Origin: Escherichia coli
Lineage (GTDB): Bacteria; Pseudomonadota; Gammaproteobacteria; Enterobacterales; Enterobacteriaceae
Direction: 5' to 3' (one strand)
NCBI RefSeq assembly: GCF_041248615.1
Contig: NZ_CP158426.1
Length of the DNA stretch: 64,000 bases
Shown here: piece after piece, positions 10,297-51,824 of the stretch
Numbering within the stretch: position 1 is the stretch's first letter
How the letters are laid out: every line of letters starts with the position of its first letter
Notes under the pieces: model-generated
What the model was told of the DNA's origin: nothing
The model's input: the letters and a program-made list of their open reading frames with translations, nothing else
The model's database searches: none
Translations under genes and position numbers: made by a program

Positions 10297-10466
10297 AATG
10301 GCTCACTCAAGCTTGCTCACGATTGATTCCAGTAACAAACCGTATTGTGTAATTATTTCTATAGCAGTTCGCTATATAGGCTTGTATACATCGAATAATT
10401 TGAAAATCAAAGAGATAGGTAGATTTTCACTCGAAAGTAGTATTACGTGTAAGTGAGGAGTAATTA

Positions 10467-10480
10467 TTGTTCGGTATCAA
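10467..10480 (-). promoter_or_regulatory. FNR-type site (TTGAT-N4-ATCAA class) in dmsA promoter region
   Basis: reverse complement reads TTGATACCGAACAA, about 170 bp upstream of dmsA ATG. Confidence 0.45.
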
Positions 10481-10491
10481 AGGGAGACAAA

Positions 10492-10506
10492 AAAAGCGCC
10501 CGCAGG
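10492..10506. repeat. attL core (direct repeat AAAAGCGCCCGCAGG)
   Basis: identical 15-mer at 50468-50482; GGTACTTA at 10516-10523 mirrors TAAGTACC at 50456-50463. Confidence 0.55.
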
Positions 10507-10592
10507 AGATTTAACGGTACTTACTCCTCTTGCTGATTTCCTTATTTTTCAATAAGTAAACAAAAACAAGGGGAGCAAATTATCACAAATAA

Positions 10593-11588
10593 TTACTGGT
10601 CGATGGACAGTTTATGGACACTTTCAGCCAGCGGATTAAAGCTGATCGCATCCTGTAAAAAGTCCGGTGAAAAATGCGCATACGTCATCGTTTGCTGAAT
10701 CGTGGCGTGACCCAGGATCCTCTGCAACGTGACGATGTTCCCGCCGTTCATCATGAAATGCGTGGCGAACGTGTGCCGCATGACATGCGTGGCCTGCCCT
10801 TTGGGTAAGTCGGGCTTCACCTCCTGAAGGATCTCCCTGAAACTGAGATAATCAACCTGATATAACAGGCCGGTCCGGCGGGTTTTAATTAACGGCACAA
10901 CGGAATCAGCTACAGGAACCGAGCGCGATTTCCCGTTCTTTGTGTTAAAGAACGTCACCCTGTTACCCACGATGTGTTCCCCGCGAAGCGTTGACGCCTC
11001 TTTCCATCTGGCCCCGGTCGAAAGGCACAGAATGGCAATGCGTCGTGCATCACCCTCAAGCCGTTTCAGAAGGCGATCAATCTCGTCATCTGAAAGAAAG
11101 GCCATTTCTGTATTCTGAACCTTGAGTTTACGTATTCCGCGCACAGGGTTTTCGTTATGATAAACCTCCGCGTCAATTAACAACGAAAACATCGCAGATA
11201 AGGCGCACAGGTCGCGATTGATACTGGACGGCATCAGTCCCGCCTGCAACTTATCCGAGCGATACTCAATCACGAATTTTCGTGTCATCTGGCTGGCGCG
11301 CGGGTCCCCCATTTCACGTATCACCTTCTCCAGTCTGGTTCTGTAGGTATCACCATATGCCTGATTACGACCATCAAGCATCCACCACACCTCAATCAGT
11401 TCTGATAACCGCCGTTGATCGGCGGGCCTTGCCTGCCACGGGTTATTGTGGAAATTCTGAAGAACGTATCTTTCGAATTCCTGCGCCTTTGATTTCAGGG
11501 TGAAAATCTTACGAATCCGCCTTCCTCCCGCCCCCTGAGGCCTTACATCAACCTGATAACGTCCGTCTTTGAGTTGCTTAATCGACAT
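10593..11588 (-). CDS. int: P2-type tyrosine integrase
   Basis: 331 aa from ATG with SD GGAGGTG; N-terminus MSIKQLKDGRYQVDVRP and C-terminal HxLRHxFAT...Y catalytic region; resemblance to P2 Int is from memory. Confidence 0.9.
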   Translation of the reverse strand: MSIKQLKDGRYQVDVRPQGAGGRRIRKIFTLKSKAQEFERYVLQNFHNNPWQARPADQRRLSELIEVWWMLDGRNQAYGDTYRTRLEKVIREMGDPRASQMTRKFVIEYRSDKLQAGLMPSSINRDLCALSAMFSLLIDAEVYHNENPVRGIRKLKVQNTEMAFLSDDEIDRLLKRLEGDARRIAILCLSTGARWKEASTLRGEHIVGNRVTFFNTKNGKSRSVPVADSVVPLIKTRRTGLLYQVDYLSFREILQEVKPDLPKGQATHVMRHTFATHFMMNGGNIVTLQRILGHATIQQTMTYAHFSPDFLQDAISFNPLAESVHKLSIDQ

Positions 11589-11657
11589 GATCAGCACCTC
11601 CGACGGATAAACCTGTTAACCCCTGCTTACTGAACGCCGCCCGTTCAATATACAGCG

Positions 11658-13711: not shown

Positions 13712-13833
13712 GCGTATTTATGTCATGGTTAATTCTTATCCTTGCCATTATTTGCGCTGTGGGGATTATGCGGGTAATTAACAGCATTAACACCATTGAA
13801 TCGTTATTTACTGGCGATAAGCGCCGTAAATAA
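13708..13833 (+). CDS. 41-aa hydrophobic peptide (single TM)
   Basis: strong SD AGGAGG 6 nt upstream of ATG; MSVFMSWLILILAIICAVGIMRVINSINTIESLFTGDKRRK; below track length cutoff. Confidence 0.45.
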   Translation: MSVFMSWLILILAIICAVGIMRVINSINTIESLFTGDKRRK

Positions 13834-13913
13834 ACAGGCGTTTAACACCAGAAACAACCAGAAACATCCGCTCACGCGGAGGGGTTGACCCGCTCAAAAA
13901 GGAGAAATCAGGA

Positions 13914-14207
13914 ATGCTTAATAATAAAAAAAACCGAATCATTGATAACAGTGAACAGGTCAACAAAATAATCGAAGGCACAAACAAATTAATTAAGAAA
14001 AAAAACAAACTAAGCCGTGAATTAATGGAACATCCGGAAGAAATATTATTAGCCATGATGCACCAGACAGAAGCGATAGCCATCGCCCTTGCCGTGCAGG
14101 CGCTTTCTGAGTTCCGGGAAGAAAACATCAGGCTGGCTCAGGAGCTGAAAAACCTCAGACGTCAGCTTCAGAGCACTGAGGCTGGCACGTCATCACGAAT
14201 ACACTGA
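13914..14207 (+). CDS. hypothetical coiled-coil protein (AT-rich)
   Basis: 97 aa; SD AAGGAG; markedly AT-rich 5' half. Confidence 0.5.
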   Translation: MLNNKKNRIIDNSEQVNKIIEGTNKLIKKKNKLSRELMEHPEEILLAMMHQTEAIAIALAVQALSEFREENIRLAQELKNLRRQLQSTEAGTSSRIH

Positions 14208-15947: not shown

Positions 15948-16174
15948 GTAACCACTATGCACACACAAAAAAACCGCTTGCCATGCCGCAATCAGTCAGG
16001 TTACATTTCCGCTGCACCTCATAAAACGGGTGCCGGGATTGCAACCCCCGCTGACAACTACAGCGCACAACCGCGCCAGCGGTTTTTTTGTGCGTACCGT
16101 ATCGCCACGTCTTTTTCGCGCCAGAATTATGGCGGGGCGTATGGGGCCGACTTCGGTCGGGCCGGTTTCTGTAG

Positions 16175-16242
16175 TTGCCGGTGGTTGCAACCCTGTACGT
16201 CTCGCCACCCAGAATTGCAACCTCTGGATGGTGAGTTTTCAA
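16175..16242. promoter_or_regulatory. three phased TTGCAAC(C) boxes; a fourth copy at 16029-16036
   Basis: TTGCAA palindromic cores at 16175, 16205, 16236 (30-31 bp apart), upstream of ORF 16268. Confidence 0.35.
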
Positions 16243-45302: not shown

Positions 45303-45366
45303 AAACAGCCATTCAACGCCGCTGCGGTGCATGAAACCATTACAGAACGCACCAGGAGAGAACACC

Positions 45367-46458
45367 ATGAAAGAGCTGTCAGTTACCGTTCCGTCACCGG
45401 ATATCGACATCACCATCAACAACAACACACTGGCAAACCTCACAGAGCGACTCATGACGCTGACCCTGACGGATAACCGGGCCTTTGAGGCAGACCGCGT
45501 CACCCTCACCCTTGACGATACGGACGGGCAGTTACAGTTGCCACCACGTGGCGCACGCCTGAGAGTGATGATTGGCTGGCGAGGAGAATCACTGGTTAAC
45601 AAGGGCACCTACGTCGTTGATGAGGTTGCGTGGGAAGGACCTCCAGATAAACTGATCATCACCGCCAGCAGCGCAGATTTTCGGGAAGAGTTCAACGTGA
45701 GGCGGGAGGTATCCTGGCACGACGTGACCGTAAAACAGGTTGTGTCAGCCATCGCTCACCGCTACGGCCTGAAGACACAGATAAGCGAAATCCTCATGGA
45801 TATCGAAATTGACCACGCTGACCAGACCGAAGAGAGCGATATATCCTTCCTGACCCGCATGGCTGAAATGCTGGGTGCGATTGCCACCGTAAAAAACGGC
45901 AGCCTGTTATTCATTCTGCCGGGTGGCGGAACCGGGCCGGACGGAAGAGCCCTGCCTTCGTTCGCCATTACCCGCAGCAGCGGCGACAGTCACCGCTTTC
46001 GCATTGCTGACCGTGATGCGTATACGGGGGTCCGGGCGCACTGGCTCGATCTGAAGTTCGGGCACAAGAAAAAAGTGAACGTGAAGCGACGCAGGGAAGC
46101 CGGGAAACAGAAACAGGAGAAGAGCAGCAGCCGGGAGGGTGATTACATGGAAGGCGCGGAAGGGAACGTCTACGTTCTGCGCAGGACTTACCAGAATGAA
46201 GAAACCGCACGACGTGCAGCTGCGGCAAAGTGGCAGGAGTTACAGCGGGGAGCAGCGGCATTCTCCATCACTCTGGCACGGGGTCGTGCCGACCTGTATC
46301 CCGAAATGCACGGCAGGGTAACAGGTTTTAAAAGCGAGGTGGACAATCAGGACTGGATTATTGCCAGGGTGGAGCACATCATAGATGAAAGCGGCTTCAC
46401 CACACAACTGGAGCTGGAAGCGAAAATCCCCGAATGGATAGCAGATTCAGGCGGATAA
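45367..46458 (+). CDS. tail protein D (P2 gpD-like)
   Basis: 363 aa from ATG 45367 with SD AGGAGAG; N-terminus MKELSVTVPSPD. Confidence 0.8.
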   Translation: MKELSVTVPSPDIDITINNNTLANLTERLMTLTLTDNRAFEADRVTLTLDDTDGQLQLPPRGARLRVMIGWRGESLVNKGTYVVDEVAWEGPPDKLIITASSADFREEFNVRREVSWHDVTVKQVVSAIAHRYGLKTQISEILMDIEIDHADQTEESDISFLTRMAEMLGAIATVKNGSLLFILPGGGTGPDGRALPSFAITRSSGDSHRFRIADRDAYTGVRAHWLDLKFGHKKKVNVKRRREAGKQKQEKSSSREGDYMEGAEGNVYVLRRTYQNEETARRAAAAKWQELQRGAAAFSITLARGRADLYPEMHGRVTGFKSEVDNQDWIIARVEHIIDESGFTTQLELEAKIPEWIADSGG

Positions 46459-46501: not shown

Positions 46502-46753
46502 ATGTTCCGTTGTCCCCTATGCGGTGCATCCGCACGTATCCGCACCAGTCGCAATGAAAATGATTCAGGCACAGTTCGCCTGAAGTACTACCAGTGCAAT
46601 AACCTCGAATGCGGGATCGGCTTTACCACACTGGAGGGTTTTAACAAATTCACATCAAAACGCGCCCCGTCGCCGCAGGGTACAGAGCGGATACCGTGGG
46701 AAGATTTTCCGGGATCTCACAGGGGGAATACTCAGATTAATCTTGATATTTAA
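46502..46753 (+). CDS. ogr: Ogr/Delta-family zinc-finger late activator
   Basis: 83 aa; MFRCPLCG...YYQCNNLEC four-Cys finger; SD AAGGAG. Confidence 0.85.
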   Translation: MFRCPLCGASARIRTSRNENDSGTVRLKYYQCNNLECGIGFTTLEGFNKFTSKRAPSPQGTERIPWEDFPGSHRGNTQINLDI

Positions 46754-46759
46754 GAACAA

Positions 46760-46897
46760 TAATCAGGTTGAGAGGACATCATAAGGCAAGTAGATTAACG
46801 GCAGATACTTTCCCGCAACCACGGGCAAGTATTTAATTATCCATGATGAAATATGACCTAAATTGTTTTTTGCCCGCCGGAAAGCGGGCATTTTTTT
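46760..46897 (+). repeat. repeat unit 1 (partial) ending in bidirectional intrinsic terminator
   Basis: shares GTTGAG...AGTAGATTA...CCATGAT...TTTTGCCCGCCGGAAAGCGGGCATTTTTTT with four downstream units. Confidence 0.55.
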
Positions 46898-47111
46898 ATT
46901 CTTTTGTGGTTATGGGGTCATCAGGAACCACGTGCAGATTATATTTTTGTTTTTTTGGCGTTCCTCCGGCAGCAACGAGTTCATCAATAAGACACTGACA
47001 CGCCTGAACATCCCGGGCATGTCTTAGTTTCACCTTTATTGATTTAACCTTATCCTCACCGGAGGAGAAATGCAGTTCAATCTCAATATCGTTTCTTCGG
47101 AACAATCTCAT
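46896..47111 (-). CDS. small protein of unknown function
   Basis: 71 aa (MRLFRRNDIEIELHF...); two decayed copies downstream; palindrome upstream. Confidence 0.5.
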   Translation of the reverse strand: MRLFRRNDIEIELHFSSGEDKVKSIKVKLRHARDVQACQCLIDELVAAGGTPKKQKYNLHVVPDDPITTKE

Positions 47112-47206
47112 ACGCCCCCTGAATATATCAGAAATACTAGTATCGAAAAATGAGAAAACAGTTAGACAGGAGAAACATATTAACACAAATCATTTATACC
47201 TATAGA

Positions 47207-47222
47207 TGAAATTATAATTTCA
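47207..47222. promoter_or_regulatory. perfect 16-bp palindrome TGAAATTATAATTTCA upstream of the small gene
   Basis: palindromic; related inverted repeats upstream of the two decayed copies. Confidence 0.35.
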
Positions 47223-47331
47223 TTCATGAATATGATAGATAACTATATTGTGAACAAAATGAAAAATGGCTAAATTAAAAATGGGCATGGAGGAATGCCC
47301 GGTTATCAATATAATGTGACGTAGATCATTG

Positions 47332-47562
47332 TTTTGCCCGCCGGAGAGCGGGCATTTTTTTTGCGCCTGCCATCGAGGCGCCTTCCCTGGCGCACACAAA
47401 GCAGCCCTGATTTTCCATGAAAACTTCAGGGTTGAGCTGCGGGCACAAAGTGAGTAGATTAGCTACGGGTACCTCCCCCTGACAACAGGAAGGGTGTCCA
47501 TTATCCATGATATACAAACGAAAAGTCTTGTTTTTTGCCCGCCGAAGCGCGGGCATTTTTTT
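47332..47562 (+). repeat. repeat unit 2, terminator-to-terminator (candidate structured sRNA)
   Basis: bounded by GCCCGCCGGAGAGCGGGC and GCCCGCCGAAGCGCGGGC hairpins with T-runs; internal conserved hairpin CCCTGATTTTCCATGAAAACTTCAGGG. Confidence 0.5.
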
Positions 47563-47688
47563 ATGCATCAGACAAGATACAGCCCACCCCAACTGACACC
47601 TGAAATATTGCCGCAACAAAAAGAAACAGTTAAATTACGCGCGGGTGCCTTTCGGCTGATGGCCGGAGGGAAAACCTGAAGGCCGGAT

Positions 47689-47922
47689 GTGGAAAGGCCC
47701 CGGAAAACATTTCTGTTTAACCGAGGCCCTAACCGCATTACCTTGACAAGTGAAAGGTTAGCGCCTCTCCGGAAAAGGAGCAAGTGCTATGTCGCAAAAA
47801 TCGCTTACGGCCATCACGTTCTGCGTGACGGCAATCCTCATCATCTGGATATTGCACGGTTCGCTGTGCGAAATACGGATGAGCTTCTGGGGAGCGGAGT
47901 TTGCGGCGTTCTTACAATGTAA
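47689..47922 (+). CDS. mok-like overlapping reading frame of hok locus 1
   Basis: 77-codon frame starting upstream of and overlapping hok, as in hok/mok/sok loci. Confidence 0.35.
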   Translation: MERPRKTFLFNRGPNRITLTSERLAPLRKRSKCYVAKIAYGHHVLRDGNPHHLDIARFAVRNTDELLGSGVCGVLTM

Positions 47923-47929
47923 GAAGTAA
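47789..47929 (+). CDS. hok: Hok/Gef-family type I toxin
   Basis: 46 aa MSQKSLTAITFCVTAILIIWILHGSLCEIRMSFWGAEFAAFLQCKK; SD AAGGAG; single TM plus conserved LCE and AAF motifs. Confidence 0.7.
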   Translation: MSQKSLTAITFCVTAILIIWILHGSLCEIRMSFWGAEFAAFLQCKK

Positions 47930-48015
47930 GGAAACCGCGACGGGGGAGCAATCCCCCGTCAATCGGTTGCCAGGGTAAGGTCGATAAGGCACCCTATCTC
48001 ACAGACATGAACAAC

Positions 48016-48050
48016 AAACCCGCAGCATAAAAACTGCGGGTTTTCTTTTT
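48016..48050 (+). terminator. intrinsic terminator of hok locus 1
   Basis: stem CCCGCAG/CTGCGGG followed by TTTTCTTTTT. Confidence 0.5.
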
Positions 48051-48181
48051 GGTGTCCTCACCGACTTGAAACAGTGATCAGACTATAAGACAAAGCCCGC
48101 AATGTTGCGGGCTTACTCTACCTCTCGAAAATGTGGTCACTGCGTGGACATACGCTGATACAAATCCTTTATATCAATAAA

Positions 48182-48280
48182 TTAAATCTTTGTTTTTTTC
48201 ATCAACAATGATTTAACCTTATCCTCACCGGAGGAGAAATGCAGTTCAATCTCAATATCGTTTCTGTGGAACAGCCTCAT
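48182..48280 (-). pseudogene. truncated copy of the 71-aa small gene
   Basis: first 24 codons near-identical to 46896-47111 copy, then diverges to early stop. Confidence 0.45.
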
Positions 48281-48501
48281 AAGACAACCTCCTGAATTCA
48301 TCAGAAACACAGTCAACTGAAAACCAGAAAGCAGACAAACAGTGGACACACATTAATACAAATCATTTATACCTATAGATGAAATTGCAGTTTCATCTAT
48401 AACATGACAGGTAACAATATTGTGAAAAAACTCAAAACTCGTTAGATTAAAGACGGACAGAGCAATGCTACTTTATCAATAACATGTAACCTGTACTTCC
48501 T

Positions 48502-48732
48502 TATTTTGCCCGCCGAAGCACGGGCATTTTTTTTGCGCCTGCCATCGAGGCGCCTTCCCTGGCGCACACAAAGCAGCCCTGATTTTCCATGAAAACTTCA
48601 GGGTTGAGCCAAAAGCACAAAGACAGTAGATTAACCACGGGTGCCTTCCACCTGACAACAGGAAGGGTGTCCAGTATCAATGACAGACAACTCACATTGC
48701 TGTTTTGCCCGCCGGAAAGCGGGCATTTTTTT
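48502..48732 (+). repeat. repeat unit 4, terminator-to-terminator
   Basis: same architecture and sequence family as unit 2. Confidence 0.5.
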
Positions 48733-48734
48733 AT

Positions 48735-48936
48735 TCTTTTGTGGTTATTGGGTCATCAGGAACAACATGCAGATTATGCTTTGATTTTTTTGGTGTTATT
48801 ACAGCAGCAACGAGTTTATTAATAAGACACTGACATGCCTGAACATCCCTGACATATCATAATTTCACTTTATTTTTTTAGCTTGTCCTTTCTGGAGCAG
48901 AAATATCTCAACATCGTTTCTGTGGAACAACCTCAT
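48735..48936 (-). pseudogene. degenerate copy of the 71-aa small gene
   Basis: nucleotide homology to 46896-47111 across its length but reading frame disrupted. Confidence 0.35.
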
Positions 48937-49151
48937 TTGCCCCTGAATGTATCATAAATATCAGCATCGGAAAACCAACAGCAATACAGAAGAAACATGT
49001 TAATGCAAATCACTTATACCTATAGATGAAATTACAGTTTTGTTCATAAATATGATAAGTAACTATATTGTGAATAAAATGAAAACTAGCTAAATTAAAC
49101 GTGGGCATGGTGGAATGCCTCGTAATCAATAATACATGATCCGTACTTCCT

Positions 49152-49380
49152 TGTTTTGCCCGCCGGAAAGCGGGCATTTTTTTGGCGGTTACCATCGCCT
49201 CACCTTCCTGGTTCACATGAAGCAACCCTGATTTTCCATGAAAACTTCAGGGTTGAGACAAAAGCACAAAGACAGTAGATTAACCACGGGTACCTTCCAC
49301 CTGACAACAGGAAGGCTGTCCAGTATCAATGACAGACAACTCACATTGCTGTTTTGCCCGCCGGAAAGCGGGCTTTTTTT
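49152..49380 (+). repeat. repeat unit 6, terminator-to-terminator
   Basis: same family; 5' hairpin region diverged, 3' region conserved. Confidence 0.5.
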
Positions 49381-49582
49381 GGCAGTTATCATAGCCGCAC
49401 CTTCCTGGCACATATGAAGCAACCCTGATTTTCCATGAAAACTTCAGGGTTGAGACAAAAGCACAAAAACAGTAGATTAACCACGGGTGCCTGCCACCTG
49501 ACAACAGGAAGGGGTGTCCATTATCCATGATATACAAACGAAAAGTCTTGTCTTTTGCCCGCCAAAGCGCGGGCATTTTTTT
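49351..49582 (+). repeat. repeat unit 7, terminator-to-terminator (shares a terminator with unit 6)
   Basis: same family; directly upstream of hok locus 2. Confidence 0.5.
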
Positions 49583-49793
49583 ATGCATCAGACAAGATAC
49601 AGCCCACCCCAACTGACACCTGAAATATTGCCGCAACAAAAAGAAACGGATGCCTTTCGGCTGATGGCCGGAGGGAAAACCTGAAGGCCGGATGTGGAAA
49701 GGCCCCGGAAAACATCTGTGTTTAACCGAGGCCTGACCCTTCCTACCGTGACAAGTGGAAGGTTAGCGCCTCTTTGTAAAAGGAGCAAGCGCT

Positions 49794-49934
49794 ATACCGC
49801 AAAAAACGATTATTGTTGGCATTTTATGCCTGACAATAACCCTGGTCATCTGGATGGTCCACGATTCGTTATGTGAATTCAGCTTTGATATCTGGGGAGC
49901 GCGTTTTGCGGCGTTCTTGCAGTGTAAACCGTAA
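49794..49934 (+). pseudogene. hok-like toxin gene copy 2 with ATA in place of ATG
   Basis: encodes IPQKTIIVGILCLTITLVIWMVHDSLCEFSFDIWGARFAAFLQCKP; no canonical in-frame start; mok-like frame 49694-49876 overlaps. Confidence 0.45.
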
Positions 49935-50084
49935 GAAACCGCAGCGGGGGAGAAATTCCCCGCTATCCGGTTGTTGGGGTGGGCCGATATGGCGCCCTTT
50001 CCCTGTAGAGACAAAACAAAAAACCAGATTTGCCCGCCATTGAGAGGGCTTTTTTGTCACCCTCACCAGTGAGGGCATCATCAT

Positions 50085-50312: not shown

Positions 50313-50423
50313 CCCCTCCCTTTGGTTCGTTGCACTGACGGCACGACACCATCAGGAAAAAGAAAAGCCCACAACGTCAGTATTGTGGACTTTTTTCTTC
50401 AAAGATGGACATTATCTGGACAC

Positions 50424-50450
50424 ATGAAAATAAAATCCATTTATTTTCAT
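50424..50450. promoter_or_regulatory. perfect 11-bp-arm inverted repeat ATGAAAATAAA/TTTATTTTCAT next to attR
   Basis: perfect palindrome, 5-bp spacer, 17 bp from the att core. Confidence 0.35.
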
Positions 50451-50467
50451 ATAGTTAAGTACCATGC

Positions 50468-50482
50468 AAAAGCGCCCGCAGG
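50468..50482. repeat. attR core, overlapping the serS intrinsic terminator
   Basis: identical to 10492-10506; continues into GCGCTTTTT terminator 3' of serS. Confidence 0.55.
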
Positions 50483-50510
50483 CGCTTTTTAGATTCAGAA
50501 AAATTGGGTA

Positions 50511-51824
<1,314 letters not shown>

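Follow-up and report, generated by a model that had tools for sequence, protein, structure and literature searches.

A stretch of 64,000 nucleotides from an Escherichia coli chromosome (NCBI RefSeq assembly GCF_041248615.1, contig NZ_CP158426.1; the whole stretch is called here the window) carries, close to the right end of a P2-like prophage, a real and lineage-restricted array of eight candidate small RNA (sRNA) minigenes. Judged from their sequence, they have a hok-derived 5' end and are akin to the sRNA morons encoded by other prophages. The best explanation, on which belief and doubt are evenly balanced, is that they are constitutive minigenes for base-pairing sRNAs of the Hfq type, built on a hok scaffold and carried as cargo by a prophage of the P2-like (Xuanwuvirus/P88-like) group. 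Each minigene would be transcribed from a sigma-70-type promoter into an RNA of 80-98 nt with the layout of class I Hfq-dependent sRNAs, and this transcription would be constitutive, as it is for hok. The RNAs would then be bound by Hfq and would pair in trans, by way of their variable single-stranded parts, with putative target mRNAs or sRNAs of the host or of foreign phages.

Five of the cassettes are long (u0 to u4) and three are short (s1 to s3). In all of them a sigma-70-like promoter with a 17-nt spacer stands at a fixed distance before the terminator. The long-type promoters read TTGAGA or TTGAGC, 17 nt and TAGATT, and the short-type promoters TTGTGA, 17 nt and TAAATT or TAGATT. Each predicted RNA was taken to span from ~7 nt after the -10 box to the T-run. 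The eight cassettes are the following:

46768 to 46897, + strand: cassette u0, TTGAGA-17-TAGATT (46768-46796), predicted RNA ~46803-46897; from promoter scan and fold (-27.7 kcal/mol, z -3.4)
47248 to 47362, + strand: short cassette s1, TTGTGA-17-TAAATT (47248-47276), predicted RNA ~47283-47362; from alignment and fold, its promoter aligning with the hok1 promoter
47432 to 47562, + strand: cassette u1, TTGAGC-17-TAGATT (47432-47460), predicted RNA ~47467-47562; from alignment and fold
48420 to 48534, + strand: short cassette s2, TTGTGA-17-TAGATT, predicted RNA ~48455-48534; fold z -1.05
48604 to 48732, + strand: cassette u2, TTGAGC-17-TAGATT (48604-48632), predicted RNA ~48639-48732; from alignment and fold
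49068 to 49183, + strand: short cassette s3, TTGTGA-17-TAAATT, predicted RNA ~49103-49183; from alignment and fold
49253 to 49380, + strand: cassette u3, TTGAGA-17-TAGATT, predicted RNA ~49288-49380; from promoter scan, alignment and fold
49450 to 49582, + strand: cassette u4, TTGAGA-17-TAGATT, predicted RNA ~49485-49582; from promoter scan, alignment and fold

The predicted RNAs, of 80-98 nt, consist of a 5' stem-loop, ~35 nt of unpaired variable sequence, a U-rich stretch, a GC hairpin and at least 7 U. The ~35-nt region is unpaired in both the minimum free energy (MFE) and the centroid folds; the 5' stem-loop and the terminator are folded in seven of the eight cassettes (z -3.4 to -1.1), s2 being the exception, and the two helices reappear when seven u-type alleles are folded together. 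The alignment of the five u copies shows a conserved core, in which AGTAGATTA is present in all five and CCTGACAACAGGAAGG in four. The mean pairwise identity of these copies is distributed as follows:

-10 box: 1.00
-35 box: 0.90
Terminator: 0.90
Promoter spacer: 0.66
Unpaired region: 0.64

Between u0 and u1-u4 both the stem-loop and the spacer are 50% identical, and u0 still folds a helix of 8+4 bp. In u2 the outer helix can form only in the + strand RNA, because four of its nine pairs are G-U. The original prediction, made from the letters alone, had proposed an sRNA array acting at the RNA level. The invariant 17-nt spacing and -10 box, the predicted 5' stem-loop and the + strand terminator are consistent with that part of it; the bidirectional terminators and the unit boundaries that it also proposed did not hold.

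Regarding the terminators, the motif TTGCCCGC-N7-CGGGC has nine + strand sites in the window, all within 46870-50049, and 15 matches on both strands against 0.2 expected. The form previously given, GCCCGCC-N6-GCGGGC, matches none of the copies when read literally, the actual motif being GCCCGCC-N5-GCGGGC. A bidirectional intrinsic terminator has an A-tract upstream and a T-tract downstream of the hairpin. The array terminators read T-run, hairpin and T-run on the + strand, and on the - strand A-runs on both sides with no U-tail; a terminator scan calls them on the + strand only. T-runs that flank a hairpin on both sides are thus not a bidirectional terminator, and true ones are found nearby at 48016-48043 and at the att core (50468-50492). 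What the array terminators resemble is another class: class I Hfq-binding sRNAs have a terminator with at least 7 U and a U-rich stretch before it (PMC5558911, PMC7367173), and in all eight cassettes the hairpin is followed by 7-8 T and immediately preceded by a run of 4-6 T.

The four units of ~200-230 bp first described, and the additional copy at 46760-46897, do sit where they were placed. However, their limits differ from those of the likely transcription units. The three short cassettes (47248-47362, 48420-48534, 49068-49183) had been missed, and the terminator copies at 47333, 48505 and 49155, which close them, had been merged into the unit starts. The copy at 46760-46897, taken for a partial one, is predicted to be a complete promoter-to-terminator cassette which lacks only the upstream hairpin. 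Neither is ~230 bp the size of the repeat: the real tandem period is ~650-665 bp, and the 230-bp units are sub-parts of a larger repeat that unites orf71 (- strand) with one s and one u cassette. It occurs three times (46869-47562, ~48182-48732 and 48703-49380), followed by the extra u4, and an intact hok locus (hok1) and a hok pseudogene (hok2) are interspersed among the copies. The orf71 copies are:

46896 to 47111, - strand: orf71, an open reading frame (ORF) of the ~660-bp repeat, coding for an orphan hypothetical protein (WP_001236182.1)
48182 to 48349 and ~48733 to 48943: decayed orf71 copies, truncated or broken

The hairpin described for the units was also located. Its 21-nt core, TGATTTTCCATGAAAACTTCA, occurs exactly four times in the window, against none expected from shuffles, and it lies within an inverted repeat that is 100% identical among u1-u4, between flanks that are 74-76% identical:

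47402 to 47434, + strand: 9-bp inverted repeat CAGCCCTGA/TCAGGGTTG (CA(A/G)CCCTGA/TCAGGGTTG), which holds the hairpin and overlaps the -35 box of u1
48574 to 48606, 49223 to 49255 and 49420 to 49452, + strand: its equivalents, overlapping the -35 boxes of u2-u4

An operator and an RNA hairpin are candidate roles for it. An operator shared by the phage promoters would be expected elsewhere in the prophage, and the window scan found the hairpin in the four units only.

As the original prediction noted, the ORFs inside the units vary between copies, and PGAP annotates no coding sequence (CDS) within the units of identical genomes. That the units encode small proteins, such as the MKTSGL... ORFs which start in the hairpin loop, is hardly credible. 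ORFs of 31-77 aa do begin at the hairpin ATG of u2, u3 and u4, but they have no Shine-Dalgarno sequence, they cross the terminators, their lengths (31, 59 and 77 aa) and C-termini vary, and u0, u1 and the short type are devoid of them.

The homology between the promoter and 5' end of the units and hok, absent from the original prediction, bears on the origin of the cassettes. The two hok loci of the window are:

47608 to 48050, + strand: hok1 locus, intact, TTGCCG-17-TAAATT, mRNA ~47643-48050, Hok CDS 47789-47929, annotated as Hok/Gef
49600 to 50056, + strand: hok2 pseudogene, from an alignment of eight hok loci, ending in a ninth and degenerate array-type terminator (50029-50056)

A profile was built from seven hok loci of phages and plasmids, and the window was searched with nhmmer after masking both hok loci. 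The top three matches in 128 kb were u2 (48596-48665, E 0.003), u4 (E 0.023) and u3 (E 0.11), all on the + strand and all over profile positions 11-81, which correspond to the hok promoter and 5' leader; positions 82-400 were unmatched in the cassettes in this masked search. Besides, the s promoters align with the hok1 promoter, and in phage P88 the hok promoter and mRNA start that follow ogr resemble the u cassettes: in a pairwise alignment across the -10 box and 5' end, P88 hok (TAGATTACGCGCGGGTGCCTTTCGGCTGA) and u2 (TAGATTAACCACGGGTGCCTTCCACCTGA) are identical at 23 of 29 positions. The likeness covers the -35 box, the A-rich 17-nt spacer, the TAGATT/TAAATT box and the first ~35 nt, that is, the tac-like GGGUGCCUU and a local 5' hairpin which is predicted in hok1 and in the units. 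As regards a counterpart of the 3' fbi element, which in hok is complementary to tac, the 3' arm of the unit stem does pair with the tac-like 5' arm, but through four G-U pairs. The cassettes also have the strand and the prophage position that hok has in related phages. On the other hand, unlike hok, no cassette contains a Hok/Gef ORF with an overlapping mok; the leader region that bears Sok, with both Sok target and Sok gene, is missing, and the terminator is of another type, the 5' flank of the hok1 terminator being A-rich and that of the cassettes U-rich.

The 3' half of the cassettes (tail and terminator) aligns only with the 3' untranslated region of hok2 (z about 6.7 for u1). All eight cassettes and hok2 have in common a 3' module made of UAUC[A/C]AU, a variable stretch and the U-rich terminator. 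Concerning hok2, a deletion of 15 nt took its -10 box and start site, its ATG has become ATA, and its terminator is of the array type, not the one customary in hok. Its last ~60 nt are found only in 26 array-bearing genomes, whereas ~650 other genomes match no more of the query than its conserved first 49-77 nt. These comparisons support the view that in the cassettes a promoter and a 5' leader hairpin of the hok type (in the long type, the first ~35 nt) are joined to a U-rich terminator module specific to the array. A simpler origin, a mini-hok produced by one internal deletion with both ends coming from hok, was considered and is half supported, the 3' module matching hok2 only and not being a general feature of hok. 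In addition, the terminator of an Enterobacter cloacae prophage (GAAAAGTCTTCTTTGCCCGCCAGCGCGCGGGCATTTTT; L012, L014, L016) is very similar to the one that closes u1 and u4 at the 3' end (GAAAAGTCTTGTTTTTTGCCCGCCGAAGCGCGGGCATTTTTTT), and the 3' module may thus have relatives in other phages.

The neighbourhood of hok leads to another explanation, namely that the u RNAs modulate hok: acting in trans on the full-length hok mRNA, their tac-like 5' sequence (GGGUGCCUU in u2) would compete for its 3' fbi element (AAGGCACCC in hok1) and in this way adjust how the toxin mRNA is activated or degraded. The closure of tac with fbi governs hok activation, the elements being defined in PMC9841398, and the MFE fold of hok1 (which scores 46 bits with the Rfam sok model, below threshold) shows the canonical 5'/3' closure, in which tac (1-15) is paired to fbi (337-352). 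Over its first 9 nt the u2 stem is identical to hok1 tac and is therefore a perfect complement of hok1 fbi. It had also been stated that two units lie directly upstream of hok loci; u1 and u4 do abut them, but the second locus is the pseudogene, so that only one of the two hok neighbours is still intact. Moreover, the tac-like segment is predicted to be taken up by the stem of the RNA itself; mismatches to hok1 fbi number two in u1, which lies next to hok1, and one each in u3 and u4; the short cassettes and u0 lack a tac-like sequence, and arrays with four cassettes exist in prophage ends where there is no hok (L002, L006, L043). In duplex and cofold tests of the units with the 3' end of hok1, pairing between the terminators prevailed, which told neither for nor against this role. 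A role as modulators of hok is regarded as very improbable.

The window is a segment of the E. coli chromosome in which dmsABC is followed by the prophage and then by serS-rarA-lolA-ftsK. The prophage is P2-like, with tail genes, gpD (45331-46458) and an ogr/Delta-like gene upstream of the array, and the DNA relatives of the neighbouring hok locus belong to Peduoviridae, genus Xuanwuvirus (P88, P884B11). The features that delimit it are:

10492 to 10506: attL core AAAAGCGCCCGCAGG, left prophage end, the longest exact repeat between the two prophage ends
10593 to 11597, - strand: integrase ORF adjoining attL
46502 to 46753, + strand: ogr/Delta-like late activator, an ORF with a zinc finger annotation in an identical genome, the last conserved phage gene before the cargo
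50468 to 50482: attR core, 15-nt direct repeat of the attL core AAAAGCGCCCGCAGG, which is the serS terminator
50511 to 51803, - strand: serS, from ORF and annotation

Since the attR core is at 50468, the array (46760-49582) is wholly inside the prophage, as part of the cargo that lies between ogr and attR. The related phages P88 and Chuche have only hok in the corresponding ogr-attP slot, with or without other cargo. As in phage morons, the array is extra DNA placed between conserved phage genes, and each cassette has its own predicted promoter-like site and terminator. Related to the att core, a match to the sRNA STnc130 (126 bits, window 10387-10521) ends at the attL core, and positions 106-126 of the model recur at attR (50468-50488); the phage att core therefore duplicates a terminator common to STnc130 and serS.

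Of 5426 complete E. coli genomes, only 30 carry both cassette types, and many of these 30 come from chickens or chicken meat. The cassettes lie on the chromosome in every case, bear no annotation and occur at 1-10 places per genome, always within a P2-like prophage; all the loci examined are at the ogr-attR end of this prophage type. The REP/BIME, ERIC, MITE and insertion sequence (IS) end elements have many dispersed copies in E. coli, and the array, with this distribution, is not a dispersed repetitive element of that kind. The cassettes were absent from the phage collection and the plasmid collection searched. Pattern scans of IMG/VR viral contigs (with two patterns), of 100,044 species genomes and of metagenomes returned only the same ~10 alleles; the species genomes gave only singleton generic terminators, and the matches in the viral contigs L005, L007 and L008 were judged to be due to chance.

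The array exists in several variants. Four cassettes are present in L002, L006 and L043, which have no hok and belong to a prophage next to copA; six in L045 and L047, and eight in the window and in L044. Every variant retains at least four cassettes, u0 is identical in all of them, and the module boundaries of the different arrays coincide with shared terminators. Recombination reshuffles the cassettes into arrays of four, six or eight. In L044 (metagenome contig OJKL01000010.1, ~13750-13981) an IS1 is inserted at the equivalent of window position 48276, inside the truncated orf71 copy. The array of E. coli CM2 (L002, 6476-6900) belongs to a sister prophage, with four cassettes and no hok, located immediately upstream of the copA promoter instead of at serS, which shows that attachment in this lineage is not confined to one site.

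These boundaries bring in the possibility that the array acts at the DNA level, either as a stack of terminators which insulates serS and the lysogenic cargo from read-through of ogr and the late genes, or as recombination sites for cargo modules. Eight + strand terminators downstream of ogr and the late genes, module boundaries that fall on terminators and an att core which is itself a terminator speak for it. Nevertheless, a single terminator would suffice for insulation, homologous recombination alone predicts shuffling at repeats, and the conserved promoters, 5' stem-loops and U-rich 5' flanks are left unexplained, so that a DNA-level role seems very improbable.

The main rival of the interpretation as sRNA minigenes is that the array is inert debris, that is, relics of hok morons which have lost the toxin/antitoxin core and drift within a ~660-bp segmental duplication. 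This explanation must be taken seriously, although it is held to be rather unlikely. Several observations count for it, or in any case against functional sRNA genes. The same repeat holds the decayed copies 2 and 3 of orf71, the hok2 pseudogene and s2, whose 5' stem and terminator are weakened and which may be decaying. Copy number changes between four, six and eight among near-identical prophages, and one array is interrupted by IS1. The distribution is very narrow and the allelic diversity low; with one prophage lineage and ~10 alleles, neither long-term purifying selection nor covariation is demonstrable. Covariation had been proposed as a check on the array: double changes affect four of the 18 consensus pairs, mostly through one divergent copy, which has no statistical weight at ~10 alleles, and the RNAalifold covariation term is ~0. 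The identity of promoters and terminators between copies could come from recent duplication or gene conversion and not from selection. The homology to hok is modest, with a profile score below 10 bits and limited to the 5' half. Finally, no targets were found: within the 64-kb window there is no RNA complementarity of at least 14 nt, the longest being of 13 nt with a strand that is probably not transcribed; against 206 ORF starts, the seeds give duplex energies no better than those of shuffled ones, and pairing with hok or phage translation starts does not exceed shuffled controls in any case.

Other observations count against debris. Between u0 and u1-u4 the promoter hexamers, the 17-nt spacing, the stem-loop and the strong terminator have been kept despite the 50% identity of spacer and stem; the 3' flank is of the U-rich Hfq type and not of the A-rich hok1 form, and no array variant has fewer than four cassettes. 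The contrast in decay points in the same direction, as copies 2 and 3 of orf71 and hok2 are broken and the cassettes keep promoter and terminator, and so do the arrays which have no adjacent hok. For these reasons the reading as candidate Hfq-type sRNA minigenes is preferred. A more elaborate version of it holds that the phage reused the hok promoter and its stabilising 5' hairpin as a scaffold for Hfq-dependent sRNAs shuffled by recombination, whose swappable seeds would reprogram host regulons or hinder competing phages; this version is held to be unlikely.

If the RNAs are expressed and functional, the array would document a route to new regulatory RNAs, in which the promoter and 5' hairpin of a toxin mRNA are joined to an Hfq-type terminator, amplified and shuffled in prophage cargo. 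It would also widen the concept of prophage sRNAs and anti-sRNAs from lambdoid to P2-like phages, and eight paralogs with different seeds would be a compact natural system in which to study how sRNAs arise and how their seeds change. Should the RNAs be inert, the array would be a clear example of the decay of a hok module and of terminator repeats driving cargo rearrangement.

The array was also compared with known RNA families. The search with Rfam 15, another check proposed at the outset, matched no family, nothing in the array reaching threshold at either the gathering or the permissive setting. The best scores were those of RyhB (24, threshold 55), AgvB (23, threshold 56) and rseX (26, threshold 50), and they are mostly driven by the terminator. 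The RyhB and AgvB matches (23-24 bits) were rejected, as they rest on the terminator plus a stretch which is 11 nt long for RyhB and loosely CA-rich for AgvB. The 11-mer CUCACAUUGCU, which u2 and u3 have in common with the RyhB core, is a similarity no greater than chance would give among so many sRNA-by-seed comparisons. The same applies to UACUUCCUU of s2 and s3, an FnrS-like 9-mer, and both seeds count as leads only. Multicopy sRNA families, some in tandem, exist in LhrC1-5 (Listeria), OmrA/B and Qrr1-5; like the array, they consist of several paralogous genes with their own promoter and terminator. They differ in that they belong to the core genome, have demonstrated expression and share their seeds, whereas the array consists of candidate RNAs with differing seeds in a rare prophage cargo.

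The nearest precedent, by analogy, is that of AgvB and AsxR (Rfam RF02702) from lambdoid prophages of enterohaemorrhagic E. coli (EHEC), in which a conserved 3' module is joined to a differing pairing region: these RNAs, of 51-60 nt, have a conserved 3' part of ~42 nt and a variable 5' region of 14-18 nt, and are encoded downstream of PR' (PMC4104026). Like them, the cassettes are predicted to be self-contained promoter-to-terminator genes in prophage cargo, with several copies per genome, and the predicted paralogous RNAs have their 3' terminator module in common, with pairing regions that vary; the terminators resemble that of AgvB/AsxR in sequence (UUGCCCG...CGGGCAUUUUUU). Unlike them, the array RNAs are predicted to be 80-98 nt long with a 34-nt 5' stem-loop, and the array is a tandem of eight with hok-type promoters at the ogr-attR end of a P2-like phage. 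AgvB carries the GcvB-target motif CACAACA (PMC4104026), which the array lacks, and the cassettes do not fall within the AgvB/AsxR anti-sRNA class. The Pas sRNAs from prophages of enteropathogenic E. coli (EPEC) and EHEC (bioRxiv 10.64898/2026.05.13.724894) are likewise prophage-borne, with a 3' terminator/Hfq module and varying copy number and sequence. By their description they differ from the array, Pas being of the Stx-type lambdoid prophages and widespread in EPEC/EHEC, whereas the array is found in 30/5426 genomes and in P2-like prophages. No description of the array was found in the literature cited here.

With regard to the other component of the repeat, orf71 found nothing in Pfam or NCBIfam and is not convincingly similar to orf75. 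In PHROG it falls to family 14142 (E 5e-12), which has no assigned function, and its relatives are found in E. coli only. Upstream of orf71 there is a sequence family, D9 (GTGGACAC...ATTTATACCTATAGATGAAAT, with the palindrome ATGAAATTATAATTTCAT), at 47160-47260, 48140-48400 and 48985-49060. It is related to the sequence beside the attR core (50396-50460, with two TGGACA repeats), and the end of P88 is similar. From this kinship, the repeat unit may have begun as a duplication of the attP-proximal arm.

Some minor observations were made during the scans. The terminator scan also matched an unrelated conserved sRNA-like gene in four Rahnella genomes (L018, L020, L026, L031), with a tataat box, GCGTGCTCACCCCCGAGGGAGTAC and the same terminator. 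In the viral contigs L010 and L011 there is a phage-borne sRNA-like gene in which CUUUCCUUUCUUUU, similar to an anti-Shine-Dalgarno sequence, precedes the terminator. In the early region of the prophage of the window, matches at Rfam gathering level to isrK (60 bits) and to the C4 antisense RNA (80 bits) lie side by side at 16014-16212 (+ strand); the pair is an immI-like RNA module of the P1/P7 type, unexpected in a P2-like phage background.

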